Sequence record: NC_052983.1
Length of the DNA stretch: 58,536 nt
DNA from: Escherichia phage E21
Direction: 5' to 3' (one strand)
Under the pieces are notes generated by a model. That model had not been told where the DNA came from. It worked only from the letters and a program-made list of their open reading frames with translations, and did no database searches. Made by a program: the position numbers and the translations under genes. Shown piece by piece: positions 1-58,536 of this stretch (positions are counted from its first letter, which is position 1; every line of letters starts with the position of its first letter).

Positions 1-1128
1 TAACGATGCTGCGATGTGGCGTAGTAACGACTCCTCAAAGTCCGTGCCGATCCCGCCGGGAGTCCCCATCGGTTTTAAGTTCAACTTAGTGCCGGGCATT
101 AAATGCGGGATCTTGGCGCCGTCTATTTCCATGTTTTTAGCAGTCGCGTAGTACGATGCTGCGTTCGTCATCATCTCATGGATAATCTCGCCGAACGGAC
201 GTTGCCCTAAACCTAACTGAGCGTAAACGGCTTCCGGTGGTAGCTCCGACTCAATTGCGGCTGCATACGAGGCATTGATTACCGCGTTTTGTAGCGTTAT
301 CTCCTGAAAGTTCTTAGTCATTCTAATGGTCTTCAATGCTGCAACCATGTCTGAGATACCGCGATTTTGGTGCGGGAGAATTTGCTCCATGATGTGAATA
401 ACCTGTCGACGTCCCCACGGTTTGCGTGATGGAACATATCGCCACATTTGATTCTCACCGTTGATTAAACTCTCTCCCGGGAAACTGTTTTGAATGTAGT
501 ACCCGATTGGTCGTCCGAACGCATCGACATGAACACCGCCTCGAATGTTTTTCGTGTTGGCCGAGTTATTCGGGTTGCTCAGTCGATGCGGGCTAATCAT
601 TTGAATGGCCGTATTGAAAGGACGACCTGCGGTTCTTGACCATTCTGCCGATGCCAATACTTCACCGGAAATCAGTGCTTGGGCCACCGCGAGGCGAACC
701 AAGCCGGTAAAAGAATTGCGTCGTGTGACATCAAACCAGTTTTCCGTTGAGTCCGCAGCCACGTTGAATTTCGACTCTACGACGTCTTGAAACTCCTCCT
801 CCCATGCTTCGGCGTCAGCTCCTTTTAGTCCTAGCGCGGACAAATTCGGCTTAGCGTTTAGCATGTATTGAGAGCCGACGATATTATCTCGATGTATCGA
901 TACGGCACCGGACGCAAAACCGTCATTCTGGATAACGTTTTGAACCCGGGCATCGGCTAATTCTTTTTGTCCGCCGTCTAATTCCTGATCCGGAGAGACT
1001 ATTGCGGGCGTCCAGCGATACATTTCTCGCGAGTTTCGCTGAGCACCCTCATAACCGCCTTGTGCTTTAACCTCCGGGGGATTGTTCGCACTTCTCGCGA
1101 CAAGTTCCTTGATTGATTTCATGCTCAT
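1..1128 (-). CDS. portal protein (lambda gpB-like), N-terminal 376 codons; gene crosses the window junction and continues at 58021..58536
   Basis: Minus-strand ATG at 1128 (MSMKSIKELV...), open to position 1; exactly 376 codons, in frame with the minus ORF that runs off the window end (junction reads ...RHIAASL|NLSYEQFSRDY...); sits between W-like and S49 protease genes as in lambda. Confidence 0.85.
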   Translation of the reverse strand, partial: MSMKSIKELVARSANNPPEVKAQGGYEGAQRNSREMYRWTPAIVSPDQELDGGQKELADARVQNVIQNDGFASGAVSIHRDNIVGSQYMLNAKPNLSALGLKGADAEAWEEEFQDVVESKFNVAADSTENWFDVTRRNSFTGLVRLAVAQALISGEVLASAEWSRTAGRPFNTAIQMISPHRLSNPNNSANTKNIRGGVHVDAFGRPIGYYIQNSFPGESLINGENQMWRYVPSRKPWGRRQVIHIMEQILPHQNRGISDMVAALKTIRMTKNFQEITLQNAVINASYAAAIESELPPEAVYAQLGLGQRPFGEIIHEMMTNAASYYATAKNMEIDGAKIPHLMPGTKLNLKPMGTPGGIGTDFEESLLRHIAASL

Positions 1129-1403
1129 TAGAATAACGCCCCTAGTGGTGCGGAAATTGACCCGAAGCCGACACCGCAATTACAGATCGGGTCGTTCGGG
1201 GCTAACTGACAAATCTGACGTTGTAGCCCGGTAAGATACGCAAGTAGACTCTGACGGTTAGCTGCGGTGAATTCAACACGTTCGCTATTTTGGTCGACAA
1301 ACACTCGGCCAGACACCCCGATTTGTAAATCGTGATATGCTCGGCTCGCTTCAACATATCGCTGTTTTAATACTGCGAGAGTTTCATCGCATGGACGGCT
1401 CAT
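1128..1403 (-). CDS. head-tail joining protein (lambda gpW-like)
   Basis: 91-aa ORF between TerL and portal; segment VFVDQNSERVEFTAANRQSLLAYLTGLQ resembles gpW core ([22 protein letters not shown]) from memory. Confidence 0.55.
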   Translation of the reverse strand: MSRPCDETLAVLKQRYVEASRAYHDLQIGVSGRVFVDQNSERVEFTAANRQSLLAYLTGLQRQICQLAPNDPICNCGVGFGSISAPLGALF

Positions 1404-1415
1404 TTTATTACCTCT

Positions 1416-3491
1416 CTATCCTAATAGTTCACCTAAACGGCTAAAGTCTAACATCGGTCGAGGTTGAAAGGCGAATGGTTTTTCTTCCTCGGGTTCCCTG
1501 ACCATCGTATTATTATCCCATTCCTCCGCCCACGTTGGGGGGTTGTCCCAATTTATCGACTCTACTCGTAATAACTCCGGAGACGTACAAAGGCCCAAAC
1601 AGTAGTAGCTTAAGTCCCATGCTTCGTTTCGGGCTTGCGCTAAATTCTCCCAACCTTTCGCGGTTCTCGTTTCGGCGCATAGCTCCGAGAAAAATTCGTC
1701 CGGTAATTCCCTAGTCATATTATAATAGCCCTTGTGAGGCTCAATACAATCTAGTCGTCCGTTTAATGCGTCTTTCAACAAGTTCGAGTTTAAGAATAAT
1801 ACCGGGATTTCTCCTCTAGCTGCATTCTTATCGTTTTTCCGGTTAGAGTCCGGATAGCTAATACGGGTTCTCGGGTCTGTTACTCGTGTGCCACCTTTCA
1901 ATAAGATGAAGCGAGCATGTTTATTCTTTGTCTTCAAATATCGATAGAACGCGTATGCCATGCCGGTTACGCCAGATTTACCCCCGGAGTCACAACCGGT
2001 CATCTTAATTGACATCATTCTACCGCTACCGTCTGACAACGGATACTCTTTATCTATTACCTGTTTTTCGATAAGTTTCCAGTCTTCTTCGTATGTCGCC
2101 GGCTGTAAGATCATTGCGTCGCCGTCTTCGTCCTTACGCTCCGACTTGTTGATGAAGAACCGGTCTATAACATGAGTGTCATACGGTGAACCCGGGGAAA
2201 TACCGAACACCTGTACTACGAAGCTATTCAATTGAACGTCTATCGTTGCTACGAGGAATCGAACGTCATTCGGAACCATGCCTAGCGGGTAATCTGATGA
2301 CCGGCTTTTCAGTGCTTCCGGTGCGCGGACTGATTCTAACGACTTAGGCTGATACGGCTCACCCATGTTGTTATTCCAGAATTTCTTCAAGGCTTCTTCT
2401 GAGTACGTCCGTTGATATTCGTCAAGGGCATCGAGGTAGATGTTTACCAGTTTTTGCCATGTCGTAAAGGCGGCTGCCGTACCGCGGAGCCAGTAAGAAA
2501 TGAAGTCGGTATGAGGGGCTTTGCCCGTAAGTCTCCCGCTCTTATCAACTTTACAACCCTCCGGAACCCACACTCCGAATAAATTCATTTCAAAGCGTTC
2601 GTCGGGGTGGATCAAACAACCACATTCCGGGCATACCATTTGTACGGTTTCTGCTTTCTCTCGGTTAGATAGCTGTTTTCCGTTGTCCCACGTTAGATGC
2701 TCGAATTTACCCTCGAAATATTCGTCACAGTGAGGACACGGCCATTGCCAACGTCGTCTATCCCCACGGTTGTAAAGCGCAATAATACCGGTACACGGCG
2801 GAGCCTCATGCGGTGACTTAGCTATCCAGTGCGGGTCAAGAATCTCTCTCGACGGGGACGATTCGGCCATAGTCATAGCAAACGAACCAAAGGTTGTTGT
2901 ACGCTGTGTTGCCAAGTCAAATGGATTACCATCACCGCCGATATCGTCGTCCATACGGTCAAAGTCGGTCATCAATATTCTTGGAACCGGTCGTCCGGCC
3001 AATTCGGTCACGGTAGGGTATGTGATAGTTAACATCATACCTGTAATGTATTGTTTATCGAATTTATTGTCGGTGTCTCTACCTTTCAACAATTGCTCGC
3101 CGATTAGCGGGCTGTGTCGGTGAAGACGATCAATACGTCGCATAGAAAAGTCTCGGGCGGCTGCCATTGTCGGACAGAATACCATTGTATCCATCGGTGA
3201 GACTTTGATTGAGTATGACACGCCATTAATGATAATCGCGTCGGTTTTACCTGACTGTGCCGGGCCTACAAACGCCATCTTGCTGTGATTGCGCGAAGTT
3301 AATACGTCCATTGGTTCGACCATATACGGCGTTGTTGTATTCAACCACGGGCCTACATACGACCCGGGAGAATTTACATATCGATATTGAGATGCTGCAT
3401 TAGAAACGGTCAACCTTTCCGGGGGTCGTAAGTTATCCGACATCTTGACCGCGATCTCAAAGAGATTTTTGTATTTAGCCATTCTTGCCAC
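1416..3491 (-). CDS. terminase large subunit (GpA family)
   Basis: 691-aa ORF with Walker A-like GPAQSGKT, followed by W-like and portal genes in lambda order. Confidence 0.9.
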   Translation of the reverse strand: MARMAKYKNLFEIAVKMSDNLRPPERLTVSNAASQYRYVNSPGSYVGPWLNTTTPYMVEPMDVLTSRNHSKMAFVGPAQSGKTDAIIINGVSYSIKVSPMDTMVFCPTMAAARDFSMRRIDRLHRHSPLIGEQLLKGRDTDNKFDKQYITGMMLTITYPTVTELAGRPVPRILMTDFDRMDDDIGGDGNPFDLATQRTTTFGSFAMTMAESSPSREILDPHWIAKSPHEAPPCTGIIALYNRGDRRRWQWPCPHCDEYFEGKFEHLTWDNGKQLSNREKAETVQMVCPECGCLIHPDERFEMNLFGVWVPEGCKVDKSGRLTGKAPHTDFISYWLRGTAAAFTTWQKLVNIYLDALDEYQRTYSEEALKKFWNNNMGEPYQPKSLESVRAPEALKSRSSDYPLGMVPNDVRFLVATIDVQLNSFVVQVFGISPGSPYDTHVIDRFFINKSERKDEDGDAMILQPATYEEDWKLIEKQVIDKEYPLSDGSGRMMSIKMTGCDSGGKSGVTGMAYAFYRYLKTKNKHARFILLKGGTRVTDPRTRISYPDSNRKNDKNAARGEIPVLFLNSNLLKDALNGRLDCIEPHKGYYNMTRELPDEFFSELCAETRTAKGWENLAQARNEAWDLSYYCLGLCTSPELLRVESINWDNPPTWAEEWDNNTMVREPEEEKPFAFQPRPMLDFSRLGELLG

Positions 3492-4059
3492 CTACGGTAC
3501 TCTCTTTGACTTCCGTCTTAGCCCGGTCTCCGAATGCCTCAACGAGTGTTTGCGCCATCTCATTTAGCGCGCCGTCTATCATTTCCGTGATGCGGGTTCT
3601 TTGATGATCGGTGAGGGTGGATTCACGTTCCAGTGAGTCCGTTACTAAGAGTAATGACATGCGTAAGTGTTTAAAAGACTCCGACATTAGCGCTTCTACT
3701 TGGTCGGTAGGCCATAGCTCACCCTCTCTCAACTCGTAGTCCTGCTTAGCTTTCATTCCGTTCCAGAACTCTTTAGAGAGCATTTTAGGAAGCTCGTTGG
3801 GGTGCATTCGCTTAATGTAGGTTTCGACATCATACAGGGGCTTTACTAGGTATGGCGCCACTTCATTTAATTTGTAAATCGGATACCCGCCTCGTTCCCC
3901 GCAAGGAGGAACTTCTCGGATCTTGGGCGTAACGTCTCTACGCTCCATGTTAAATATCTTTGCGATCTGAGTAATGTTAACCCCGTCGAAGATCATCGAC
4001 TCGGATTCACGGTCTAGCTGATTGCTACGACGTCTTGTTGTTACCGGTGCCTTTGCCAT
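3475..4059 (-). CDS. terminase small subunit (Nu1-like, N-terminal HTH)
   Basis: 194-aa ORF directly upstream of TerL with 17-nt overlap; N-terminal region (ITQIAKIF...GERGGYPIYKLNEVAPYL) resembles Nu1 winged-HTH; true start may be the internal Met (MIFDG). Confidence 0.55.
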   Translation of the reverse strand: MAKAPVTTRRRSNQLDRESESMIFDGVNITQIAKIFNMERRDVTPKIREVPPCGERGGYPIYKLNEVAPYLVKPLYDVETYIKRMHPNELPKMLSKEFWNGMKAKQDYELREGELWPTDQVEALMSESFKHLRMSLLLVTDSLERESTLTDHQRTRITEMIDGALNEMAQTLVEAFGDRAKTEVKESTVGGKNG

Positions 4060-4061
4060 AA

Positions 4062-5585
4062 CTAAACTTCCTTTTTCATCGCTTTTCTGAGATCACGTAA
4101 GGTCTTCAAGGCCCAATCTTGGTTTTCTTCCTTACGTCTCAGATTGTTATAAACGTGGCGGTCGGCTAGTTGGACTGTTCGGCCATCTTCATTTGTTCCG
4201 ACCGCAACTAAGTGGTGTACTGTTACTCGGTGCTTTTGACCTTGCCTATCGAGCCGGCCGATAAATTGGTCATAGTTCTCGAACGAATACGGAATGTCAT
4301 AGAAAAGAATTGTATGTCCGCCCCGCTGTAAATTCAAGCCGTGCCCCGCACTTTGAGGGTGTGCCATGTAAACTTTTATTCGCCCCGCGTTCCATTGTTT
4401 TATGTTATTTCCGTCTTTATCCATCTCGACGATATCCGGGAATCGGGCTAATATTCTTTCTCGTGATGACCGAAAGTGATACCCAAGGAAAACATTCTTT
4501 CCGGCTTCCTTTGCTTCTTCCAGAAACACTTCGAGCGCGTCTAGTTTCTCCTCGTGGATATCATAGATGTCGGTCTTCCTTATCGGCTCCTCGTTCTCAT
4601 CTATCCCGTCATAGTACGTGTTGTAAATAACGCCGGAGCACATTTGTAGCAGTTTCAATGCGAGTATCGCTGCCGATTGCGCTTCCACTATGACGTTTTC
4701 CGCTTCGGGTATCATCATGACTAAATTCTTTTGGAAGTCGAAATACTCCTTGGTGATCTTCTTATTGAGTTTTACCGGGATCACCTTTGGCTCATACGGT
4801 ACTCGATCGAGATAGTCTTCTGCTCGCATAACTACGCATATATCTTTTATCTTTTCTAAGATACGCATCTCCGTATCTTCTCTCGGCTTGATGCTGTGGT
4901 TATACGGGTTGTACTCGAAGTATTTATCCCTAAACTTATTGAAGCTACGGCCGAACCGTTTACCGTAATCAAGTAAATATATTTGAGAAAAGAACGAAGT
5001 AAATCCCTCGCCATTTGGGGTGGCCGTCAACTCGATTAGTCGTTTTATCCTCGGTCTGACTTTAGTTAAGTCCTTAAACCGCTTAGATTTGTGAGACTTA
5101 AAGGAACTCGACTCGTCTATGACCACCATATCGAACGGCCACTTGCCTTTGTAATAGTTTACTAGCCAGCTTACATTCTCTCGGTTTATGGATACGATAG
5201 GACTATTGCTATTTAGTACCGCTAGTCTTTCCTTGGGTGTTCCGACTGCCGGCGTTACTTTATACCCACATAGATGACCCCACTCCATGAATTCGTCCGG
5301 CCATGTTACTTTAGCCACCCTACGAGGGCCTATAATGAGAACTCTATCTACTTCAAAGTTATCAAGTAAGTCGGCGATCAGCGTTCCGGTTATTACGGTT
5401 TTGCCTATACCCATTTCGAGGAATAATCCGCAGAATGGAATGTCATGCGCCAGTTGTCGGGCTTCAACTTGATACTCGTGTAAGTCTTCCCGTTGTCTTT
5501 CAACAAGTTTTCTACCTTTCCTGATTTCTTCAAGTAGGTTAACTTTAGTCTTCCCAACCGTACGTTTCGAGAATTTCTTTCGCAT
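4062..5585 (-). CDS. SNF2-family (SF2) helicase
   Basis: 507 aa; Walker A GIGKT, DExx-type VVIDESS, motif III TATP, motif VI GRLDRQGQ. Confidence 0.8.
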   Translation of the reverse strand: MRKKFSKRTVGKTKVNLLEEIRKGRKLVERQREDLHEYQVEARQLAHDIPFCGLFLEMGIGKTVITGTLIADLLDNFEVDRVLIIGPRRVAKVTWPDEFMEWGHLCGYKVTPAVGTPKERLAVLNSNSPIVSINRENVSWLVNYYKGKWPFDMVVIDESSSFKSHKSKRFKDLTKVRPRIKRLIELTATPNGEGFTSFFSQIYLLDYGKRFGRSFNKFRDKYFEYNPYNHSIKPREDTEMRILEKIKDICVVMRAEDYLDRVPYEPKVIPVKLNKKITKEYFDFQKNLVMMIPEAENVIVEAQSAAILALKLLQMCSGVIYNTYYDGIDENEEPIRKTDIYDIHEEKLDALEVFLEEAKEAGKNVFLGYHFRSSRERILARFPDIVEMDKDGNNIKQWNAGRIKVYMAHPQSAGHGLNLQRGGHTILFYDIPYSFENYDQFIGRLDRQGQKHRVTVHHLVAVGTNEDGRTVQLADRHVYNNLRRKEENQDWALKTLRDLRKAMKKEV

Positions 5586-5832
5586 CGTTTAAATTATCCA
5601 CCCAATATACTAAAGCCCCGTAGCGCTTCATCTCGGCCATGCGTAATTCTTGTTGCTTCGACGGCTTCTCTCCGGGGCGTTTGATTTCGATAAAAACTAC
5701 AAAACTGTTTTTAATGAATATCCGGTCTGGTACGCCTCGTTTACCGGGGCTAGTAAATTTAGAAACCCACCAGCCTCGGGCCAAAGCGTATTTTCGGATA
5801 TCCGATTCGACTTTGCTCTCTCTAACAGTCAT
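5545..5832 (-). CDS. VRR-NUC domain nuclease
   Basis: 95 aa; GVPDRIF...FIEIKRPGEKPSKQQ matches the VRR-NUC PD-(D/E)xK signature; overlaps helicase start by 41 nt. Confidence 0.7.
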   Translation of the reverse strand: MTVRESKVESDIRKYALARGWWVSKFTSPGKRGVPDRIFIKNSFVVFIEIKRPGEKPSKQQELRMAEMKRYGALVYWVDNLNDAKEILETYGWED

Positions 5833-7865
5833 TAATCTTTACGGTAAAAATACCCCTCCCACCCTGCTGCTCCTAATGGTAGTCCCGGCGCCCACGATAT
5901 CGGTGCTGCCATACAATCAATGAGGTCGTCTAGCCCTAACAGGTCATCTTCGTCGACTTCCGTTATGATTTCATCGTGAACGTGGAATACGATATCGAAA
6001 CCTATTTCTTCCGCATTAAACATGCCGTTTACTAGGACATCTCTTGCTATGGCTTGAACGATATTCTCAATCAATTTCCCGCCGTGCGTGGTTTGAACAC
6101 CCCAACCGCCTTGATCTTTTTTACCCTCGTACATTATTTCTTGACGAGTGTACGTCTCACCTCTGCGGTTCTTGTAGGTGTTTGTTACTAAGCGTGGGCG
6201 GTAGTAATAAAGTTTCCGCCCCGATGGCAACTTAATCCATAAGAACGGTTTTTTAAACCCGAATACTAACGATCTCCATCGGGTTGTCTTGTGCGTCTTA
6301 ATGGTGGTTTTTACGCAATCTTCAAGTTTATACCAACCGTCAACAATCTCAGGGCACAACTCTCGGAATGCGTCTACCGAAGCGTGAGCCTCCTCTTGTG
6401 TTAGCATGACTCCCATGTTTTCACCGTAACCCCAAAGTCCGGTTTTCTTACCGTCAATAAGTTCGCCACCGCCTAGTCGATATCCGCAACCTAGTGTGGC
6501 CGGTTTTGCCTTTCCTCGGAATGGGAGGGTGTCTTCGTAAGGAATTTTTAGCCATGCTGAGGCGAATGCGCGATATAAGTCTTTTTTAGCCCGCAAGGTA
6601 TCTAGGAACCACTTACAGCCGGTAAGCCAACCTATTACTACCGATTCAATTGATGACAAGTCCGCTACAACGAAGCGACGACCTACCGTTGGGATTAGTG
6701 CGGATCGTAGTAGCCCCGGCAACATATCCATGGGTTCGCCAGCAAAAACGTTTAAAGCCCACATGTCTTGGTCGAGAACTAGCTTTTTAGCGATTTCCGT
6801 AGCTTCGACGTCTTCAAGTATCTTCGGTGTTCTTACGAAGTTGTGAGTTTGTAAGCCCCGCCCGGCGAATCGTCCGGTTCGAGAACCCCCGTAGCATTGA
6901 ATTGTTCCGCGTACCCTACCGTCGTCGTTTTCAATATCTAACATTTTGTTGTATTTCTTTAGAGAGGTTTTGTTAGATTTACGACGAAGTTTAAGAACTC
7001 GACACGCTTTTTCTGTGATCCCATTGTCCGGATACTCGTTTATGACTTTTTTCACGGTGTCAGCTAATAGGTCGTTGAACGGGTATCCCTCTTGTTGTAG
7101 CCACGCTAATAGTTGTTTCTGAGACCCGGGATTGGCTAGCCCTGTAAGTTCTCGCATTTCATCGATAATCTGTGGCTTGCGTGTCTCGGCCATCTTTATT
7201 GCTGCTTCGATGAAGTCGTTATCGATATTTATTCCGCGGTCATTAATTTTCTGGTCTAACGCGTAAACTTCCCACTCAAATTCGATCATGTCATACTTGA
7301 TGTCACTCAGACGGCGGTCGATATTTTCTTCGGCTATCACGTCTTGTCGGCAATAGGCTCCGAATGCTTCCCATTCTTCCGGGTGTGATTCCGCATCGTG
7401 TCTTGTACTTTTGTCGAGTTTAGTTGGCTTTCTTGGTTTACAAAATTTCTGAATTAGGCGTTTACCTGCTGCGTCTTTTGCTTTATCCCCTTTAAAACCT
7501 AGAGCCTTACCAACCATGTCTAACCCGCCGGTAAAACCTCGGTGGTACGCAGCCACCATCGTACAACGCCAGACGTCATACGGTGTGTCGATACCTAGGA
7601 CGTGTTTAGTGATCAACCGCTCAAACTGCGCGTTGAATGCCCGTTTTATGATGTTATCGTCGCGCAAATATCCCTTTAACTCGTCTAAATCTTCTTCGGG
7701 CATTGTGTTGTCCCAAAAACCGATTTCGTCCGAGTCAGTAAACTTCCACGCTACCATTAGAATTTCAGTAGACGGGTGCTGTGCATACTTGTGACCGCCT
7801 ACTTTCTTTATGTCTAGTTCGCTATATGTTTCATAGTCAAAAATTAACGTTCTTTTCGATTCCAC
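5832..7865 (-). CDS. family-A DNA polymerase with N-terminal 3'-5' exonuclease
   Basis: 677 aa; exo I motif FDYETYS, motif B-like RGKAKPATLGCGYRLGG, motif C HVHDEII; GTG start at 7865 preceded by GAGGAG. Confidence 0.9.
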   Translation of the reverse strand: MESKRTLIFDYETYSELDIKKVGGHKYAQHPSTEILMVAWKFTDSDEIGFWDNTMPEEDLDELKGYLRDDNIIKRAFNAQFERLITKHVLGIDTPYDVWRCTMVAAYHRGFTGGLDMVGKALGFKGDKAKDAAGKRLIQKFCKPRKPTKLDKSTRHDAESHPEEWEAFGAYCRQDVIAEENIDRRLSDIKYDMIEFEWEVYALDQKINDRGINIDNDFIEAAIKMAETRKPQIIDEMRELTGLANPGSQKQLLAWLQQEGYPFNDLLADTVKKVINEYPDNGITEKACRVLKLRRKSNKTSLKKYNKMLDIENDDGRVRGTIQCYGGSRTGRFAGRGLQTHNFVRTPKILEDVEATEIAKKLVLDQDMWALNVFAGEPMDMLPGLLRSALIPTVGRRFVVADLSSIESVVIGWLTGCKWFLDTLRAKKDLYRAFASAWLKIPYEDTLPFRGKAKPATLGCGYRLGGGELIDGKKTGLWGYGENMGVMLTQEEAHASVDAFRELCPEIVDGWYKLEDCVKTTIKTHKTTRWRSLVFGFKKPFLWIKLPSGRKLYYYRPRLVTNTYKNRRGETYTRQEIMYEGKKDQGGWGVQTTHGGKLIENIVQAIARDVLVNGMFNAEEIGFDIVFHVHDEIITEVDEDDLLGLDDLIDCMAAPISWAPGLPLGAAGWEGYFYRKD

Positions 7866-7886
7866 GGTCTGCTATCTCCTCAATAC

Positions 7887-7928
7887 AAAAAAGGCCCCTA
7901 TTACGGAGCCTTGAACGGGGCGAACCCC
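7887..7928 (-). terminator. intergenic hairpin(s) with U-run (possible attenuator/terminator between DUF2815 and polymerase genes)
   Basis: Minus RNA GGGG-UUCG-CCCC tetraloop hairpin, alternatively GCCCC...GGGGC followed by CUUUUUUG; then the RBS GAGGAG. Confidence 0.35.
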
Positions 7929-7929
7929 T

Positions 7930-8535
7930 TTAGATGTCGTCTTCTTCGCCTTCACCCCATTCGTCTTCGTCGTCCCACGCTTCGGAATCATCGATTCTTT
8001 CAGCACCGAACGGCTCGCCGTCTTTGATGAATTTGATTGAACGGAGGTTAGCGTTAACTCGTTTTCCGTATTTGTTATCTTGAACCCAAAGACCAATCAA
8101 GGCACTAACATAGCAACCGCCGTATAGGATTTCTTCAATATCGTCTACGTCGATTTCTTCTTTGTCAGCATCTCGACAAACAGGACGTTTCTTTTCCCGG
8201 GCGGAGATAACAAACATATTTTCACATTCAGGTTTGTCCGAAAATTCTTCGTCACCATCTTTGATGAAATACTTCGATGACGGGACTTTCACTTTCGCGT
8301 TTTTCGCTGTTTTAGCTGCTAAATCTTTTAAGACTTCGGCTGTTTCAGAATGAATGTCCTTGTCTAATAAGAATGTAGCACCGAACTTTTTACTGCCGTC
8401 ATCACCCTCTTGTGGTGTTGCTAAGTGTGGGTATGACAAGCGAACATTATCAATTCGGACGTGGCCGTCTTCATAGATTACCGCTACTGTTTTACCTTCA
8501 TGTTTAATACGTTTTACTGGTTTAAGTTTTGCCAT
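7930..8535 (-). CDS. DUF2815-like protein (putative ssDNA-binding)
   Basis: 201 aa with highly acidic C-terminal tail (EWGEGEEDDI); sits between DUF2800-like nuclease and polymerase, the usual DUF2800/DUF2815/PolA arrangement. Confidence 0.5.
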   Translation of the reverse strand: MAKLKPVKRIKHEGKTVAVIYEDGHVRIDNVRLSYPHLATPQEGDDGSKKFGATFLLDKDIHSETAEVLKDLAAKTAKNAKVKVPSSKYFIKDGDEEFSDKPECENMFVISAREKKRPVCRDADKEEIDVDDIEEILYGGCYVSALIGLWVQDNKYGKRVNANLRSIKFIKDGEPFGAERIDDSEAWDDEDEWGEGEEDDI

Positions 8536-8566
8536 TTTCCGGTTTACCTATTTATCGATTTTCGGT

Positions 8567-9895
8567 TTAATCGTCCCAAACTTCTTGATACTTCTCGTTT
8601 AGGTCTTTTCGTGGGTCGTCCTCTGTAACTAACGTCGGTTCGCCCGGTTTTGTAAAAGTCAGGTCAGACAAGATGCTTTTAACAACATCTTTATCATATC
8701 CTAGCTTTTTCAATAGTGTTTCGGCCTGTTTCGGGGATATCATCTTTGTGGGGTTTATTTGACTTTCGTCTAGCCCTACAAATTCTAGTTCTTCCGTGGC
8801 CGTGGACTCCTCAACAAACTGCCGAGTCCCTCTTTTCGCTACCATCTTCAAGCCTTTTATCGGCTTACCCTCCATGATCCGTTTTGATGCTGCTTTCTCA
8901 ACATCTTTGAACCACTTCTCTATCGGCTTGCGATGTGGGTATATTAACGAAATTTCCTCCCATGTCAATAGGGAAGTCTCTTTTAATTGTAAATTTAGTT
9001 CTTCTCTGAGGAGATCTTTTATACTTGCCATGTCGTCCGCCGAGTATCCGAATGGGTTAGGGCTGTATCTGCCGTTCTTGAGATCTAGTATTCTTGCGAA
9101 GTTCGCCGGGCATTTGTAGGATATCTTACACCACTCGCAAGCCTTTTCACTTGGGTAACGTAGAGCGTCCATACTCCACGCTTCTTTGGTGGCTTTTTTC
9201 ACTCGCTCCCCGAAAGCGATAATCTCCGAACGGGTCATCTTAAACCGGCCAAAATTATATTTTCTCGGTTGACAGATACGGATCTCTATATCTTCGAAGT
9301 GATACTTTTCGTCGAACTCTCTAAAGAATCCGTATGCGTACAATTTCAATTGAGTATTGTCGTCAGTAGAAACGTGAATGAATTGCCCGTATTTCAAATC
9401 GGTTATGATTAATTTACCGGGTTGGCATACAGCGTGGTCACACGTACCGCCTTGTCGGATAAACTTAATCGGGCTTTCATCTTCCCCGTTTAGCTCGTCT
9501 GCGTCCGGGTTGGCGATCGGCATTAAGTCCGTGAACCACACTTTAGTTTCTACAAACTGATCGCCTTTGTTCTCACCGCACATCTTAATGTATTCTTGAA
9601 GATACTCGAACATTTCGTGGTCGACCGGGATCTCGAATCGATTTCCGTTCTCCTCGTGTACCTGAGTTGTATTTAATAAGTGGTCGGGCCTGTTCCCGGT
9701 TCTCAACCACTCCTCAGCAATAGCGTGGGCGATGGTTCCCTCGGCTGCCTCGAACCCGGCTGAATCTTCCTCCAAGATGCTAGGTACTAGCGACCCGGGG
9801 CAATTCATCCAAGTTGCGGAGTATGACGGTGCGAATATCGAATGTCCGTCATTTTCGCAAGCCAACATAAGTCGATGTAAAAATGATTTATCCAT
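8567..9895 (-). CDS. DUF2800-like PD-(D/E)xK nuclease with Cas4-like Cys cluster
   Basis: ITDLKYG (D..K) motif plus C-terminal CEWCKISYKC cysteines; start moved from the track call (9931) to ATG 9895 (MDKSF), which has RBS AGAGG and lies 3' of the terminator hairpin. Confidence 0.75.
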   Translation of the reverse strand: MDKSFLHRLMLACENDGHSIFAPSYSATWMNCPGSLVPSILEEDSAGFEAAEGTIAHAIAEEWLRTGNRPDHLLNTTQVHEENGNRFEIPVDHEMFEYLQEYIKMCGENKGDQFVETKVWFTDLMPIANPDADELNGEDESPIKFIRQGGTCDHAVCQPGKLIITDLKYGQFIHVSTDDNTQLKLYAYGFFREFDEKYHFEDIEIRICQPRKYNFGRFKMTRSEIIAFGERVKKATKEAWSMDALRYPSEKACEWCKISYKCPANFARILDLKNGRYSPNPFGYSADDMASIKDLLREELNLQLKETSLLTWEEISLIYPHRKPIEKWFKDVEKAASKRIMEGKPIKGLKMVAKRGTRQFVEESTATEELEFVGLDESQINPTKMISPKQAETLLKKLGYDKDVVKSILSDLTFTKPGEPTLVTEDDPRKDLNEKYQEVWDD

Positions 9896-9909
9896 ACTAC
9901 CTCTAATAC

Positions 9910-9935
9910 AAAAAAGGGACTGCCTAAGCAATCCC
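9910..9935 (-). terminator. rho-independent terminator
   Basis: Minus RNA GGGAUUGC-UUAG-GCAGUCCC (8-bp stem, one G.U) followed by UUUUUU. Confidence 0.65.
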
Positions 9936-9955
9936 TATCATTCAGTTAGTTGATA

Positions 9956-10438: not shown

Positions 10439-10489
10439 AATTCAAATTCCTTAATTAGTTGACTGGATTGTCTCGTTTCGACACGGCCT

Positions 10490-10517
10490 ATAATACTCGT
10501 TATGAAATCCCTGTCAA
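10490..10517 (-). promoter_or_regulatory. sigma70-like promoter for the minus-strand replication/structural operon
   Basis: Minus-strand TTGACA (10512..10517), 16-nt spacer, TATTAT (10490..10495); about 45 nt upstream of ATG 10438. Confidence 0.45.
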
Positions 10518-10711
10518 CACCTTTTTGACGAAATTTTTATATCGGGTATCCACCTCAATGTTAGGCCACCCGAAAAGTTTCATTGCCGGTAAGATGTTTA
10601 TCGCCTTTTAGGTGATACTTTTATCCTCTCAACTGATATCGCTCTCAGGTGGCCGTAGATTTAAGTCCGTTCACGTATTGACTTTCTGTTTTAAGTGGAA
10701 TATCCCGCGCG

Positions 10712-10741: not shown

Positions 10742-10790
10742 CTGCGTCTACCCTCGGGTTAGATTTATCACAACTAAGGAGCAAGTATTT

Positions 10791-11075
10791 ATGAAAGAGA
10801 GTAATTTCCCATCGTGGGCGAAGAACAATAAAACGGGTCGACTTAAATTCATGATCCGGCATTTAGCCAGTTTCGCTTCGGAGGAGGGCCACCTAGTTTT
10901 CCTGTGCCGAGACGCTAAACTGTCGGTTCGTGGTGTCTCACAAGCAATCGACCGAGGAGAATTCACCTTTCAAATGGCGGATAAACTCGTTAAGGCTGCA
11001 AGCGTTGCTGGAAACCCGGACGTCACAGTTATGAACCTATTAAAACCTATGGAATCATTTAAAGAGGACAAATAA
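10791..11075 (+). CDS. hypothetical protein
   Basis: 94 aa; RBS AAGGAG 9 nt upstream; stop overlaps primase start (TAATG). Confidence 0.5.
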   Translation: MKESNFPSWAKNNKTGRLKFMIRHLASFASEEGHLVFLCRDAKLSVRGVSQAIDRGEFTFQMADKLVKAASVAGNPDVTVMNLLKPMESFKEDK

Positions 11076-13750
11076 TGTCTAACGTTTTCAAATCTCGTGG
11101 CCCTGAACTTTTCGACAATGGATACGAAGTCGTACCTATTACTCGTATCGACGCAACTGACAGCAAAGGGAAATTATTGTCTGGCGCGGGTAAAGCCCCG
11201 GCGTTAAAAGGGTGGCAGAAAATAGAGATCACTTCTGACATCGTTAATGAATGGGCGACGGGTAGTCGCTCTCGCTGTGGTGTGGGTATTCGTACCCACC
11301 GTAACCCTGCTGTCGATATCGACTGTTTAGACGCCGAAGCGTCAGAACACATGACGGCTTTCGTTGAGTCGGAAGTGGGCTTTGCTCCTATCCGTGTTGG
11401 GCGTGAACCTAAAGCGCTACTCCTCTATTATACAGAACGTCCTTTCACAAAAGTAAAATCAACCATCTTCGTTGATGAAAACGGGAATGAAAACGCTGTC
11501 GAGATATTAGGAAGCGGGCAACAATTCGTTGCTTACGGTATCCACCCGGGAACTAAGAAACCGTATAAATGGGTTACTAAAGGCGAGTCGCCTGCGGAAA
11601 ACCAAGCGGATTTTGACCTTGAAGAAATCACACTAGAAGACGCGAGAAAAATTATTGCGGAATTCGACCGGTATGCGAAAGAGCGCGGTTGGAAACCTTT
11701 AAAAAGTAAAAGCGGTACGGTCATCAAGCCATCTTTGGGCTACTACTTAGATGCTCCGGAAGAACTATCAGACTGGTCGGACGAGTCGGACTTTGACGAT
11801 GATGAAGACGATTGGGTCACTACTGATGATATCACCGATAAATGGGACGGTACTTACGAAGAACTTTACGAAATCTTCGAAAATGATATCGAACCATCTT
11901 ACGATTACCACACTTGGATTCCTGTTCTGGCTGCACTTAAAGACGCCGAACGTGAGCCGGACGAGTTTAAAGAGATCGCGAGAATGTGGTCTGCTCGGGC
12001 CGAGGAGTCTTTCGATAACGATGCCTTTGAAGATAAATGGGAAAACGGTAATTTCAATCGTGTTGGTAAATACGCTAAGACATTACGAGGAGTAATTGCC
12101 GAAGCGGAAAAGATCCAAGGCGTTCGCGAAATTGAGGACGTAGTTATACCTTTATTCGAAAAAGCTACTGACTTGGCCGAGTGGACTTTAGCTGCCGACC
12201 GCCTACGTGAAACGTGGGCTTTCGGTTTAGAAAGAGAGACGGCCATAAACATTGCTTGCGAAAAGTATAAGAAAGTCACTAACGGGTTAAAACTTACGGA
12301 CGTTCAAAAGAAACGATATCTTAGTATCGATTACTCTCTCTTTGACGCTCCCGAATGGTTGGCTCCTTGGGTTTATTGTACTACGGATAACGAGTTTATT
12401 AACTTAGACAATAGAACCAGAATGAACCCTAAATCTTTCGCGAATGCCTATAACCGAGAAACTGTGAAGAAATTCGGGGTAGCTGCGGACGTTTTCGCCA
12501 CGGTTGAAAGACCCGTTCCTGTTATCCACGATACGATGTATTACCCGTTGATGCACGGTGAGATGCCTAAGAACAAATGGAAGCGGGTTCCGGGTATTAA
12601 TGACAAGCGTGTTTTCGAATACAACGGTTTGACGTTCTTAAATACCTTTGACCATCGTTCCATGCCTGAGACCGCAACAAAAATTTCGACCGCTGGATAT
12701 AAGGCGATCGGGGAGGTAAAACGATACTTCGAAATACAGTATCCAGATCCAGACGAACGAAGACATGCGATGGACTGGATCGCGTGGGTTATCAATAATC
12801 CTGTTAGAAAGATTAACTATATGCTTCTCGTTCTTGGTGGTCAGGGTTCCGGTAAAACCATCGTTAAGAAGTTTATGGAACACATGCTCGGCTCTGATAA
12901 CGTCTCTACGATTTCGAATAAGGTTATCCATGGTAATTTTACCGGGTGGCAGTCTGGTCACATGCTCAAAGTTATTGAGGAAATATCGGTGAGTGGTCAT
13001 CGCTACGACGTTATGAACTCATTGAAAGAGCCGATATCGAATGAAACGTTACAGATCGAAGCGAAGTACCGTGACCCACGCCAGTGTGTGAATACTTCGT
13101 CGTATATGGCATTTACCAATGATGTTGGTGCTTTGCCTCTTACATCAAGTGACCGTCGCTTCTTGTTAGTTCGTAGTGCGTTCCAGCACAAGCGTGAAGT
13201 CACTGAATACCTACGGAAAGACCCTAATTACTTTAAACGGTTTGAGAAAGCCTTTACTAAACACGCACCGGAGATCCGCAAATGGTTTAGCGAGTGGGAG
13301 TATTCCGAGGGCTTCAAACACGATGGTAACGCTCCTGAAACGGTGAGTATGGGAAGCATGTCTTTAGCGTCAGAAGACGATTTCACCTCCGTAGTAATGG
13401 GGGCCGTAGATGATTGTGAGAAAGAGTTAGAATTTACATCGGGGATCACAGACGAAGTAATTTTCATTCCATCGGCAGTAGATTTAGTCCGAGATAGGTC
13501 TAAGGTTCCTAACGGGAAAATAATATATCGCATACTCGCTGAATATGGTTTCTTCCGGCCTGTGGATTCTCGTACACAAATAAGATTTAATGACGTAAGA
13601 GGACAAGTTGTTGTCGCGAATAGACATAAATGGCTCTATCCTGATGGGAGTGTCAACGTAGATAAGATTAAAGAGCATTTAGAGGAGAACGAACGCCGGG
13701 TAGAAGAACAAGAAAGCAAGAGAGAGTTAGAAGAAACTGACGTTTTCTAA
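11075..13750 (+). CDS. DNA primase-helicase (prim-pol-like N-terminus, P-loop D5/SF3-type C-terminus)
   Basis: 891 aa; Walker A LGGQGSGKT and Walker B-like region in C-terminal half; acidic linker; typical phage primase/helicase layout. Confidence 0.8.
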   Translation: MSNVFKSRGPELFDNGYEVVPITRIDATDSKGKLLSGAGKAPALKGWQKIEITSDIVNEWATGSRSRCGVGIRTHRNPAVDIDCLDAEASEHMTAFVESEVGFAPIRVGREPKALLLYYTERPFTKVKSTIFVDENGNENAVEILGSGQQFVAYGIHPGTKKPYKWVTKGESPAENQADFDLEEITLEDARKIIAEFDRYAKERGWKPLKSKSGTVIKPSLGYYLDAPEELSDWSDESDFDDDEDDWVTTDDITDKWDGTYEELYEIFENDIEPSYDYHTWIPVLAALKDAEREPDEFKEIARMWSARAEESFDNDAFEDKWENGNFNRVGKYAKTLRGVIAEAEKIQGVREIEDVVIPLFEKATDLAEWTLAADRLRETWAFGLERETAINIACEKYKKVTNGLKLTDVQKKRYLSIDYSLFDAPEWLAPWVYCTTDNEFINLDNRTRMNPKSFANAYNRETVKKFGVAADVFATVERPVPVIHDTMYYPLMHGEMPKNKWKRVPGINDKRVFEYNGLTFLNTFDHRSMPETATKISTAGYKAIGEVKRYFEIQYPDPDERRHAMDWIAWVINNPVRKINYMLLVLGGQGSGKTIVKKFMEHMLGSDNVSTISNKVIHGNFTGWQSGHMLKVIEEISVSGHRYDVMNSLKEPISNETLQIEAKYRDPRQCVNTSSYMAFTNDVGALPLTSSDRRFLLVRSAFQHKREVTEYLRKDPNYFKRFEKAFTKHAPEIRKWFSEWEYSEGFKHDGNAPETVSMGSMSLASEDDFTSVVMGAVDDCEKELEFTSGITDEVIFIPSAVDLVRDRSKVPNGKIIYRILAEYGFFRPVDSRTQIRFNDVRGQVVVANRHKWLYPDGSVNVDKIKEHLEENERRVEEQESKRELEETDVF

Positions 13751-13773
13751 AATATCGCGATTTTCGGTTTAAA

Positions 13774-13800
13774 GAGGTCACATTACGTGGCCTTTTTTAT
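13774..13800 (+). terminator. rho-independent terminator after primase-helicase
   Basis: AGGUCAC-AUUAC-GUGGCCU (7-bp stem, one G.U) followed by UUUUUUAUU. Confidence 0.7.
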
Positions 13801-13806
13801 TGCCCG

Positions 13807-13828
13807 AAAAACGACGCTCCCGATCGGG
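13807..13828. repeat. 21-bp box AAAAACGACG(C/T)TCCCGATCGG, copy 1 (contains perfect palindrome CCCGATCGGG)
   Basis: Repeated with one mismatch at 14787..14807; flanks the ORF-free region. Confidence 0.7.
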
Positions 13829-13854
13829 AATGCACGTTTGGTCAAAAAATGAGC

Positions 13855-13871
13855 GTACAAAATTTATACAG
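13855..13871. repeat. near-palindromic box GTACAAAATTTATACAG, copy 1
   Basis: Second copy TGTACAAATTTTATACAG at 13974..13991; half-site GTTGTACAAAAA at 14080. Confidence 0.6.
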
Positions 13872-13973
13872 AAAAACGTTCAATATTTAACCGATTTTCG
13901 GGTGATCGGATTTTTTGAGTGAATTTCCAATTTTTCATTTTTCCATTTTTTGGTCGAAAAACACCGAAAATGC

Positions 13974-13991
13974 TGTACAAATTTTATACAG
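13974..13991. repeat. near-palindromic box TGTACAAATTTTATACAG, copy 2
   Basis: Direct repeat of 13855..13871, about 120 bp apart. Confidence 0.6.
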
Positions 13992-14786
13992 GGTTTTTTG
14001 ACACAAAGTGTGTCGGTCATGTGTTCCGACGTGTGCGTGCCAGTTAACGTGTTGATTTTATTGAAAACGCATTTTTTATGTTGTACAAAAATCACCCAAC
14101 ACACATGATCGAATTACCTTTATATAGCTTATATATATATTTTTCTATTTTTCCTTTCCTATCTATTTTTTCTTTCTTCTGGAATTTCTATTTTATTATC
14201 TATTACTGTGTTTGCTGTGTCAGAAAGAAAGTAATATAGTAAAAACAATAACTTACCTTGGAACACCTATTGGAACATCAGCCGGCACAGCAATTTCCTG
14301 TGACACACCACCAGCCATGGTAATACCTAAAACGGCGCATAACTATTTGATATTATTACGGAATTACCTAAAATACCGGTCATTACGGTAAACCCGCCCT
14401 CCCGATCTACTAGCTACGCTAGACCCGAATTAATCTAATTAAATCAACGATTTGCGACGAGGGGCTATGGCAGATCCCGGACAAATTTCTGGAAGACGGC
14501 TCTGCGCACCCCCGCCCAACCGGACAACTCGTCCAAGTACCTTTTTCGATTTAAAAGTGATTCTTCTCTAGAAAGCACGGAGAGCGACGCACAGGCTTTA
14601 GCAATAGGGGACATCATCTAACACCGCGATCGCCTCGCACAATCGCACACGCTTACAATTTGAAGCACATCTAACCCACAACACCGCCCACCCGAACACC
14701 CAAACATCGAAACATCACGAAAAGCGGTTATATTTGTAAAAACGTCATGCGGTACAACCGCACACCCGAACACCCGCACAAAACGT

Positions 14787-14807
14787 AAAAACGACGTTCC
14801 CGATCGG
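14787..14807. repeat. 21-bp box AAAAACGACGTTCCCGATCGG, copy 2
   Basis: Direct repeat of 13807..13828. Confidence 0.7.
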
Positions 14808-15012
14808 CGTGTTCACCCGAGGCGCTATACCCCCGCTCAACGGATACGACCGACAAACTTAAAACCCCCTTTAAGTCGGAACAAACAAAGCGCCGTCTTC
14901 CGCCCTCAATCGAACCACACGGGCATAACTCATCGTAGGTAATACATCGGCCTTACCTAGCGGGCAAAACACGCTGAGGACGCAACACATGGCTTTACGG
15001 CAATTTTCCATA

Positions 15013-15067
15013 GGGTGGGGGGGAATGGGGGAGAGTGAGGGCTTGGGGTGGTGGTGTTGGGTGGGTA
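15013..15067 (+). other. G-run tract with G-quadruplex potential (C-rich on the transcribed minus strand)
   Basis: GGGTGGGGGGG..GGGGG..GGG..GGGG..GGTGG..GGGTGGG within 55 nt, directly 3' of the minus-strand small membrane protein gene. Confidence 0.5.
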
Positions 15068-15160
15068 GGCGCTGGCGCGACCGCATGGACAGACTGACGG
15101 CTAAGAACGAGAAAAGCCCCGCACGAATGCGAGGCCTTGGGGGTGGACTGTGTGGGACGG

Positions 15161-15400
15161 CTACCGGATTGTTAGGGCGACGCCTCCGGCGAACACCAAG
15201 ATCGCAACGCAAACCATGAAGACGACCATCATGATAGCGCCGATTGATTCGAGAACTAACGTAGTGCGGTGTAGACCGTCGAAACCGTGGTTTTGTAGGG
15301 CGCGGAAAAAGAACGAGAGAATATAAATCGAAATTAGGCCGAAGAAACACACGGCGCCCACGTTGTACACACCGGAGAGTAGCATCTTGAGAATGCTCAT
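15161..15400 (-). CDS. small membrane protein (2-3 predicted TM helices)
   Basis: Hydrophobic segments VGAVCFFGLISIYILSFFF and IGAIMMVVFMVCVAILVFAGGVAL; start set at internal ATG 15400 (ATGA overlap with upstream gene). Confidence 0.45.
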   Translation of the reverse strand: MSILKMLLSGVYNVGAVCFFGLISIYILSFFFRALQNHGFDGLHRTTLVLESIGAIMMVVFMVCVAILVFAGGVALTIR

Positions 15401-56746: not shown

Positions 56747-58024
56747 TTAGTTACCGAAATAGCCAAGACCTGAAAGGTCGTCTAATAACGAGTTATTCTC
56801 GTCCGTTGCTAAGGGCTTATCCGTGTCCTGTGGCTCGGCTTTGATGCCCGGCTGTTCGCCTTCGTCCATTGCTTTCTTAAAAGCGTTCGGCTTTTCTTCT
56901 TGCTTTGGTTCTTCCGCTTTCTCAACCGGAGAAGCGTTAAGCATTGCCTTAGCATCTTCTTCGCTCATTGAGGTGTTGAACGCGATGTGTTGTGCTAACG
57001 ATTCGCGCCCTTTTGCTTCATCACAACCAAGAATGCCCTTGATACGCGCTTGTTCTGCTTTCGCACCTTTAGCTTGTTCTTCGGACGCATTGATTGTCGG
57101 TTGCTCCGCGTTTGTGTTTTTTACGGCCATATCAGTTTCGCTCTCTGTTCCGTTAATGAAGTTGTGTAATGCCATTTCTGGCGATTCAACGCGGTCAACT
57201 AGACCTAAGTCTTTAGCATCATTCGCGTCGTATGTTTTCGCTTCGGTGTCGAATACTAGCTTTTCCGACAAACCGCGATTTCTTGCTACGGTTGCTACAA
57301 ACGTTTTTCTACAAGCGTTGACGCCTGATTGTAGCTCTGCTCTCGCTTGATCGCTAAGTTCCTCGAAAGGGTTGGTTTCTGCCTTTCTGTCGCCGGCGCG
57401 TATCACAGATACTTTAATTCCTACGTCAGACAACATTTTAGACATATCAGCGTGAATAATCAACGCCCCAATTGAACCCGCGCCACCCGAGGGCGTGATA
57501 CTTATCGCGTCACACGCACTTGCGATCGCGTAAGCAGCAGAATAGCAACTTGAGTTGATGACGGCCAGTGTAGGTTTTTCACCGCGACGACTGAAAATCT
57601 CGTCCGATAGTTCCATACAACCGGCTGCCTCGCCTCCACCCGAATTAACGTCATAGACGATTCTCTCGACGTCCGGATCATTCAAGGCCATTGCGTGTGC
57701 TCTACGAATATAGCTATATCCTGTAACGAATCCCCAAGAACCGCCGAAGCGGTTAATTAGAGAGCCGTGTACCGGAATGAAAGCGGTTCCGTTAGAGAAT
57801 CCGTATGGTTTGTTAGTTGGTGCGCTGTTAGACACCCCATACGTCATACACACGTTGTTTAGCATTGTTGACCAAGTTTCGTCAGTCATGTCGGCCTCTA
57901 CGTTAGCTAGCAACTGTAAGTTACTCCCCATAGAACCGACTGAACGTTCGTCCAGAAACGCCGGGCGTAGATTAATAGCTTGTACCGCTTGTACGGCAGC
58001 AGCTTGATAAGTGCCTTGCGTCAT
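56747..58024 (-). CDS. prohead protease / scaffold (S49 ClpP-like, lambda gpC-like)
   Basis: 425 aa; S49-type core (SGGGEAAGCMELSDEI...INSSCYSAAYAIASACD); between portal and decoration genes. Confidence 0.85.
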   Translation of the reverse strand: MTQGTYQAAAVQAVQAINLRPAFLDERSVGSMGSNLQLLANVEADMTDETWSTMLNNVCMTYGVSNSAPTNKPYGFSNGTAFIPVHGSLINRFGGSWGFVTGYSYIRRAHAMALNDPDVERIVYDVNSGGGEAAGCMELSDEIFSRRGEKPTLAVINSSCYSAAYAIASACDAISITPSGGAGSIGALIIHADMSKMLSDVGIKVSVIRAGDRKAETNPFEELSDQARAELQSGVNACRKTFVATVARNRGLSEKLVFDTEAKTYDANDAKDLGLVDRVESPEMALHNFINGTESETDMAVKNTNAEQPTINASEEQAKGAKAEQARIKGILGCDEAKGRESLAQHIAFNTSMSEEDAKAMLNASPVEKAEEPKQEEKPNAFKKAMDEGEQPGIKAEPQDTDKPLATDENNSLLDDLSGLGYFGN

Positions 58025-58536
58025 TCCGAATCCCCACTGTTAGTTTCTTCGTCATCTTCCGAGTTTGTTTTCTCGTTAGCGGATATATTACTCACATCTC
58101 CGGAGAAAACAAGCCCGTATTTATCTTTTATTCGTTTTTCTCGTTCTAACTGCCTAAAAATCTCTCTCCAGTCTTCGCCGAGTCGAGCGATTTCTTTCTC
58201 ACGAGTGCTCAGACCACTGTTAATTCTCATGATAGCTGCTTCGGTCTCTTTCTTCTCGTCGATTTGACCGCGGGCTGCACCTATCCAGTCGCAACGAATT
58301 AAACAGTCTTTCACTAACGGTTCGTAAAACCAGTCGCTCGTTTTTCCTCGTGGCAACGGGATTTCGTTTTTGTTTATCATCTCCTCTAACCACAACGCAT
58401 AAATGTTTGTAGCGAAAGCATCAGCAATGATCTTTTTGCGAGACTGCATGAATTTCCATGTTTCCCCCATTGAGGCTCTCGCGGAAGAATAGTTAGTCTT
58501 CGTGTAGTCTCGGCTAAACTGTTCGTATGAAAGGTT
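58021..58536 (-). CDS. portal protein, C-terminal 171 codons (continuation of the gene at 1..1128 across the circular junction)
   Basis: Minus ORF open to the window end, in frame with the N-terminal segment; ends with acidic tail ...EDDEETNSGDSE; stop overlaps protease start. Confidence 0.85.
   Translation of the reverse strand, partial: NLSYEQFSRDYTKTNYSSARASMGETWKFMQSRKKIIADAFATNIYALWLEEMINKNEIPLPRGKTSDWFYEPLVKDCLIRCDWIGAARGQIDEKKETEAAIMRINSGLSTREKEIARLGEDWREIFRQLEREKRIKDKYGLVFSGDVSNISANEKTNSEDDEETNSGDSE

Follow-up and report, generated by a model that had tools for sequence, protein, structure and literature searches.

A Chi-like Proteus phage genome in which the predicted cohesive-end site lies about 10 kb from lambda-type terminase genes

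We analysed a DNA stretch of 58,536 nucleotides recorded as Escherichia phage E21 (NC_052983.1; the whole stretch is called the window here, and positions are counted from its first letter), in which the genes for the small and large terminase subunits (TerS and TerL) directly follow a replication module with a PolA-type polymerase. The sequence very probably belongs to a Chi-like phage of Proteus that uses lambda-style cos packaging, with its cohesive-end site, cosN, at 14499–14510, far from the terminase genes. The 12-nt cohesive end, 5'-GGTGCGCAGAGC, has one exact match in the window and still only one when a single mismatch is tolerated, against about 0.007 exact matches expected by chance. 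More degenerate copies, with up to three mismatches, number 21 against an expected 28.9 and are not in excess anywhere, the neighbourhood of TerS included. The same 12-nt 5' extension was mapped on Chi DNA by primer extension (PMC4342425), and the same ends were obtained for Utah by run-off sequencing (PMC5374247) and predicted for Jing313 with PhageTerm, being present in all six genomes including DanisaurMW, DoubleBarrel, Inception and NotEvenPhaged (PMC9022528). When 14380–14640 was used as the query in a sensitive blastn search, the linear records of DoubleBarrel, NotEvenPhaged, DanisaurMW, Jing313, Inception and SVV09-A were found to break exactly at 14499/14510. The RefSeq entry for Enc34 carries a 'cos overhang' annotation at both record ends and has TerS at 10,318, and PibeRecoleta has an 11-nt 'cos overhang' annotated at its record ends and a TerS match at 10,485. 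From these correspondences we infer that this particular phage also cuts at 14499–14510.

With base 1 of the mature genome placed at window position 14510 and read on the minus strand, all of the boundaries that we checked coincide with those of Jing313 (primase 761–3436, DUF2800 4616, TerS 10452, TerL 11029 and portal 13383). The TerS gene then starts at genome coordinate 10,452, with cosN 10,440 bp upstream of its ATG; the arrangement is therefore not that of a lambda-like cos, in which cosN would stand directly upstream of the small terminase gene. The original prediction, made from the letters of the window, was that the replication genes are separated from the terminase genes by only 2 nt, leaving no room for a cos site upstream of TerS, and that the packaging site must lie elsewhere or inside coding sequence. 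The separation can be read directly from the sequence at 4061–4060: the minus strand reads AAG GAA GTT TAG tt ATG GCA across the junction, with the helicase stop at 4064–4062 and the TerS ATG at 4059, and a space of 2 nt is too small for a cos site. The packaging site does indeed appear to lie elsewhere, beyond the replication genes. Its placement inside coding sequence does not hold, because cosN sits in a non-coding region of 1.1 kb that is flanked by the primase gene (plus strand, ending at 13750) and by the last gene of the right arm (minus strand, 15350..14871), both of which are transcribed toward cos. The termini of the relatives likewise map to 14499/14510 and not within the helicase gene. 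Packaging would proceed by a lambda-style cos mechanism with a GpA-type TerL and a DUF1441-type TerS, and because the terminase is diffusible and acts in trans on concatemers, cos need not adjoin the genes that encode it. Inward from the left end, the genome would pass through the primase and a regulator, both of them encoded on the other strand, and then, rightward, through a hypothetical gene, DUF2800, the single-stranded DNA-binding protein (SSB), PolA, the endonuclease, the SNF2 helicase, TerS, TerL, gpW, the portal, and the head and tail genes.

Over the 8.5 kb that were compared, the window is 97–98.7% identical, with 100% coverage, to 26 records of Proteus phages of the pPM_01, PM87, Inception and Jing313 type. 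Inception and Jing313 are the closest (98.7% nucleotide identity over the 8.5 kb), and the Jing313 record is classified as Casjensviridae; Lavrentievavirus. The window groups with the Chi-like phages (Lavrentievavirus) by this nucleotide identity, by the 12-nt end GGTGCGCAGAGC in combination with a distance of more than 10 kb between the left end and the terminase genes, and by gene order. Joining the two ends of the window restores an intact open reading frame (ORF) of 547 residues for a lambda-family portal (1128..1, then 58536..58021), which argues that the window is an entire genome, cut open within the portal gene at an arbitrary position and not at cos; neither a terminal overlap nor a direct terminal repeat was found at the window ends. 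On these sequence grounds, the window represents the complete genome of a Chi-like Proteus siphovirus (Casjensviridae, Lavrentievavirus) in circularly permuted form. Some records 97–98% identical to it are labelled 'Staphylococcus phage SVV09-A', 'Enterococcus phage AS-M1_NWU' and 'Pseudomonas phage E21', and several are labelled 'Salmonella phage SD-1x'. Such host labels are implausible for a Chi-like phage of Proteus and suggest contamination or mislabelling.

The gene that follows the helicase encodes a TerS by family and position and, more tentatively, by predicted fold. All 83 of the 83 TerS homologues carry PF07278, the family is annotated as TerS and is named as such in the Chi, Enc34 and Saba records, and the gene lies directly upstream of TerL with an overlap of 8–17 nt. 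The AlphaFold2 (AF2) model of the protein (pLDDT 81) suggests an N-terminal winged helix-turn-helix (HTH) followed by long helices; when the full-length model was used for fold searches, the results were dominated by the long helices and the matches, to MerR-type folds, were weak. Only part of the 'Nu1-like' description in the original prediction can be retained. With a profile of 47 TerS homologues, hhalign aligned residues 27–79 with residues 3–58 of Nu1, the winged-helix domain, at a marginal score (E 0.012, probability 3.5%), and Pfam returned DUF1441 alone, without Phage_Nu1, at E-values up to 10. Sequence searches of the PDB (including the Nu1 DNA-binding domain) and of NCBIfam with TerS gave no useful match. 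The resemblance to Nu1 would be one of architecture only, the family being DUF1441 and not Nu1. No experimental work on a DUF1441-type TerS is reported in the papers cited here.

The ATG at 4059 is, by conservation, the true start of TerS, since residues 1–21 are conserved in 46 homologues (consensus RRSN, with an invariant D16) and the Jing313 annotation is the same. A Shine–Dalgarno sequence, AAGGAAG, stands 8–14 nt upstream of this ATG within the last helicase codons. Translation of TerS may be coupled to the helicase gene or may re-initiate after it. An alternative start at Met22, which would have left a gap of about 65 nt, was rejected on the same conservation and because ATG 4059, unlike Met22, is preceded by a good Shine–Dalgarno sequence. 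TerL is of the lambda GpA type, scoring far above the cut-offs for both PF05876 (225.9 bits) and PF20454 (187.6 bits), and is 23% identical to lambda gpA (BLASTP, E 1e-15). Its start is likely the ATG at 3482, as annotated in Jing313, which gives an 8-nt overlap with TerS. The interval that had been given for the joined modules, 3475–9895, omits TerL (1416–3491). Phage mEp213 was considered as a contrast (a DUF1441 TerS beside cos) and set aside as uninformative, its record beginning at the TerS start codon.

Compared with the Chi-like group overall, the genome shows no difference of substance. Chi, Utah, Enc34, RedJac/PibeRecoleta, Kokobel1, JS26, pPM_01, PM87, Jing313 and Inception share the GGTGCGCAGAGC end with the window and have the same order of cos, primase, replication genes, TerS, TerL and portal, with TerS about 10.3–10.8 kb from the left end and with a tight or overlapping junction between helicase and TerS. 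Relative to Chi, the Proteus phages have a lower G+C content, have no homologue of Chi gp1 in the stretch from cos to the primase, have a 2-nt gap at the junction in place of a 14-nt overlap, and carry their first IHF-consensus site on the opposite strand. Likeness to lambda is evident in the GpA-type TerL, followed by gpW and a lambda-family portal, and in the 12-nt 5' overhang; in addition, the left-end flank with its IHF-consensus sites may recall cosB, and the predicted fold of TerS, a winged helix and then long helices, would be as in Nu1. In lambda, however, the distance from the left end to the start of Nu1 is 191 bp (190 bp from cosN), as against 10,452 for TerS here, the small subunit is Phage_Nu1 and not DUF1441, and there is no module of PolA, SNF2 and DUF2800. 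The distant Casjensviridae (Burkholderia phages BcepNazgul and AH2, Xylella phages Sano and Salvo, Synechococcus phage S-ESS1 and Ruegeria phage DSS3-P1) share the block from exonuclease to portal, with TerS 26–46% and TerL 46–53% identical to those of the window, and within the stretches examined the Chi 12-mer was not found in them as a cohesive end. A literature search by family name on the cohesive ends and terminase of Casjensviridae returned no papers.

The flanks of cosN were described from alignments of four and six genomes across the cos junction (window, Chi, Kokobel1, Enc34, PibeRecoleta and pAEv1812). The core, CGGG-GGTGCGCAGAGC-CG (14497–14514), is invariant in the window, Chi, Kokobel1 and Enc34, while PibeRecoleta and pAEv1812 have the close variants GTGCGGAGAGC and GGGGCGCGGAGC, and conservation of the core extends across five genera. 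On the right-end side lies a conserved box, AAAAAGGTACTT (14535–14546), which is 25–36 nt in, and on the left-end side a conserved stretch terminates in CATAGCCCC (14461–14469). The 58.5-kb window as a whole has five matches to the IHF consensus WATCAANNNNTTR, and three of them are inside the 1.1-kb non-coding cos region, namely site 1, AATCAACGATTTG, site 2, TATCAAATAGTTA, and a third at 14045–14057 on the minus strand. The position of site 1 is conserved, but its strand is not: Chi, Enc34 and PibeRecoleta have the site on one strand, and Kokobel1 and Jing313, like the window, have it on the other. A second consensus or near-consensus site is present at about +150–190 in Chi, Enc34, PibeRecoleta, Kokobel1 and Jing313. 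Beside this second site, Enc34 and PibeRecoleta have a repeat of the TAGCCCCGC box, and Chi has a near copy, TAACCCCGC. The left-end flank also contains a palindrome with a constant centre, C-GTA-G, and with arms of 4–5 nt that vary between genera yet remain complementary: on the genome strand it reads CTAGC-GTA-GCTAG in the window, CTCCC-GTA-GGGAG in Chi, TTAAC-GTA-GTTAA in Kokobel1, TACC-GTA-GGTA in PibeRecoleta and CCCC(C)-GTA-(G)GGGG in Enc34. Such an element could form a hairpin, or a co-evolving dimer could bind to it. By analogy with lambda, the left-end 200 bp, with two IHF-consensus sites, the CATAGCCCC box and the covarying palindrome, would act in a cosB-like manner, with site 1 as a candidate bend site in this region, and the AAAAAGGTACTT box is a possible cosQ-like element. 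If the left arm is read as cosB-like and AAAAAGGTACTT as a possible cosQ, packaging would run from the left end rightward.

Several repeats were also observed in and around this region. The cos region is bracketed by a direct repeat of 21 nt, AAAAACGACG(C/T)TCCCGATCGG, at 13807–13827 and 14787–14807, with its copies 980 nt apart and a weaker third copy at 14390–14407; it holds the palindrome CCGATCGG and may be an operator or another protein-binding site. The motif GTACAAA(A/T)TTTATACAG is present at 13855–13871 and 13975–13991, 120 nt apart, and also at about 14080; Chi, Enc34 and PibeRecoleta have similar repeats, GTTACAAGTTACA, at +224..+330. A phage regulator probably uses these GTACAAA-type repeats, which are close to the left arm's primase end, as operators. 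On the right-end side, 170–270 nt from cosN, C-rich repeats of the ACCCGAACACCC type occur as four copies in two pairs (14683–14780).

The order of genes around the junction is conserved well beyond the Proteus phages. Primase and regulator (both −) are followed by a hypothetical gene, DUF2800, SSB, PolA, endonuclease, SNF2, TerS, TerL, gpW adaptor and portal, and this order recurs in Chi, Enc34, JS26, BcepNazgul, Xylella phage Sano and Synechococcus phage S-ESS1, the hosts being gamma- and beta-proteobacteria, Xylella and a cyanobacterium. Helicase and TerS overlap by 14 nt in Chi, 17 nt in Enc34, 1 nt in Serratia phage JS26 and 14 nt in Sano, and BcepNazgul has a 33-nt gap; the temperate Ruegeria phage DSS3-P1, alone, has a 3.2-kb insert with HTH and integrase genes between the two. 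PolA is 53% identical to that of the window in Chi, 54% in Enc34, 45% in BcepNazgul, 37% in Sano and 35% in S-ESS1, and the corresponding values for TerL are 62%, 70%, 53%, 49% and 47%, the replication and terminase proteins losing identity in parallel across these genomes. Neither GC content nor skew shows a break at the junction at 4060. Because the same order is found family-wide and the two modules have diverged in parallel, the comparison places any joining of the PolA-type replication module with the lambda-like head module before the diversification of the family and makes it a family trait, not a local event.

The arrangement had originally been interpreted as a mosaic between these two modules, and for this we find weak support. 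The GpA-type TerL, gpW and the lambda-family portal are lambda-like, and lambda is without the PolA, SNF2 and DUF2800 module; a recent recombination, in which the PolA module was newly spliced onto a lambda-like head module, could draw on both of these facts and on the insert in DSS3-P1, which shows that the helicase–TerS boundary can accept insertions. We nevertheless consider a recent scar very unlikely, because the tight junction recurs over distant hosts, the identities of PolA and TerL drop together, and composition is unbroken at 4060. Still less credence is due to a cos or pac site inside coding sequence at the 3' end of the helicase gene or the 5' end of TerS, an arrangement that would keep the terminase genes beside their site. 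The pac sites of P22 and SPP1 lie inside the TerS gene, and TerS of the window contains, at 3935–3946, a resemblance to the cosN 12-mer with three mismatches. This match is, however, a chance one, being one of the 21 in the window where 28.9 are expected. No relative's assembly ends there, all of the linear ones ending at 14499/14510, the experimental ends of Chi and Utah are more than 10 kb from TerS, and TerL is of the GpA type, which is the type that makes cohesive ends.

A different proposal concerns the genes at the junction themselves. The endonuclease and the SNF2 helicase might be accessories of the terminase in DNA maturation (for example, in the removal of branches from concatemers before packaging) and not replication genes, in which case the zero-gap junction would mark a functional operon with TerS and TerL. 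In nearly all members of the family, the genes for endonuclease, SNF2, TerS and TerL either overlap or adjoin one another, the 95-aa protein matches families of the Holliday-junction-resolvase type, and resolvases are required for packaging in T4 (gp49) and T7 (gp3). Against this, RNA sequencing of JS26 groups the terminase genes, gp75–76, with the late structural genes, and the helicase and the genes upstream of it, gp77–84, with the middle, replication genes (PMC8754663). As these expression classes differ despite the 1-nt overlap between the JS26 helicase and TerS genes, some regulatory boundary must lie within coding sequence. DSS3-P1 also has the two blocks apart, and overall we regard an accessory role as unlikely. 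Two further ideas seem similarly doubtful. In the first, the close packing of endonuclease, SNF2, TerS and TerL would be more than compactness, the resolvase-like nuclease and the SNF2 motor being produced along with terminase so as to clear concatemer branches for packaging. In the second, which is separate, the left arm would be a cosB-like, IHF-dependent assembly site in a transcriptionally quiet convergent region; its elements would be the two IHF-consensus sites, which are phased, together with a CCCC box that is repeated and the covarying palindrome.

Lambda-style packaging from a cosN at 14499–14510 remains the explanation that we prefer, and it has its own points of weakness. The cut site is carried over from relatives, both those that are 97–99% identical and more distant ones, and since the window begins and ends within the portal gene, no end signal comes from the assembly itself. 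The cosB-like, cosQ-like and IHF labels come from consensus matches and conservation, with an IHF consensus that is short and a region that is partly AT-rich. Finally, a promoter and terminator scan of 1000–15000 was no richer than shuffled sequence (23 versus 21.5 and 17 versus 15.6, respectively) and says nothing firm about transcription.

A terminase layout distant from cos is already known: it was stated explicitly for phage Chi in 2015 (Hendrix et al.; PMC4342425) and is common to the whole ICTV family. The present case carries little weight beyond correct annotation, and it serves as a reminder that lambda-type terminase genes need not adjoin cos. The window and several records of the same phage group were deposited as arbitrary circular permutations, and the unique 12-mer at 14499–14510 lets the true ends be assigned, which places TerS at 10,452 and makes the records comparable. 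The new detail is the anatomy of the cos flanks, which is largely interpretive; the conserved flank, where the candidate IHF sites lie together with the CATAGCCCC box and the palindrome that covaries, offers a target for studies of Chi-like packaging or for cosmid-like transducing vectors for Proteus.

Table 1. Features of the window from the gpW adaptor to the cos region, with the matches or observations on which each assignment is based.
Feature	Position	Strand	Basis
gpW-type head-tail adaptor	1403..1128	-	Pfam gpW, phrog_75; portal gene next
TerL, lambda GpA type	3491 (or ATG 3482)..1416	-	GpA_ATPase E 8e-67; GpA_nuclease E 4e-55
TerS	4059..3475	-	Pfam DUF1441 E 1.2e-15; phrog_141 'terminase small subunit' E 2e-57
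Spacer between helicase stop and TerS start, 2 nt	4060..4061	-	read from sequence
SNF2 helicase	5585..4062	-	Pfam SNF2-rel_dom E 1.3e-8, ResIII, Helicase_C; phrog_62 E 9e-135
Small endonuclease, 95 aa, VRR-NUC-like or Holliday-junction-resolvase-like	5832..5545	-	phrog_93 E 1e-27
Family A DNA polymerase (PolA)	7865..5832	-	Pfam DNA_pol_A E 3e-10; phrog_17 E 1e-120
Enc34-type single-stranded DNA-binding protein (ex-DUF2815)	8535..7930	-	PF10991 E 1.5e-29; phrog_112
DUF2800 exonuclease (Cas4-like / PD-(D/E)XK)	9895..8567	-	Pfam PF10926 E 3e-66; phrog_69 'exonuclease'
160-aa protein	9956-10438	-	phrog_7721; low-complexity repeat of type TKAESKSETKAESKSETK, acidic tail
Primase (Prim-Pol / DUF5906)	11075..13750	+	Pfam and PHROG matches; first gene inward from left cos end
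Non-coding region holding cos, 1.1 kb	13751..14870	.	ORF map, sequence, repeats
IHF-consensus site 2, TATCAAATAGTTA	14340..14352	-	+159..+171 from left end, about 102 bp from site 1
Palindrome CTAGC-TAC-GCTAG	14410..14422	.	about +89..+101 from left end; alignments
IHF-consensus site 1, AATCAACGATTTG	14442..14454	+	matches consensus WATCAANNNNTTR; +57..+69 from left end
Conserved cos core	14449..14546	-	blastn ('distant'): block of about 100 bp, 75-82% identical in Chi-like phages of Salmonella, Escherichia and Providencia
Predicted cosN, 12-nt 5' cohesive end 5'-GGTGCGCAGAGC	14499..14510	-	single exact match; ends of relatives

The genes that precede the terminase subunits are arranged as originally described: DUF2800, the DUF2815-like protein, PolA, the endonuclease, the SNF2 helicase, TerS and TerL are all on the minus strand and in the order claimed. 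The PolA stop and the endonuclease start overlap (TAATGA), the endonuclease and SNF2 helicase genes share a 41-nt overlap, and from PolA through to the portal the genes follow one another with no space between them; no terminator is predicted there, in a scan that was itself no richer than shuffled sequence. The 'VRR-NUC' label first given to the endonuclease is plausible, but its score against Pfam VRR_NUC (15.7 bits, E 0.016) is below the 23.8-bit cut-off. The primase is encoded on the strand opposite to the other replication genes and corresponds, at genome coordinates 761..3436, to Jing313 gp1. The gene for the 160-aa phrog_7721 protein heads the rightward replication run and lies just downstream of the best sigma-70-like promoter match, a suggestive TTGACA-16-TATTAT at 10517–10490. 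Terminator-like sites consisting of a hairpin and a T-run are present on the minus strand at 9936–9915, before DUF2800, and at 7912–7891, between SSB and PolA, and there may be a link between these sites and the very high expression that was reported in JS26 for the Cas4-like gene cluster.

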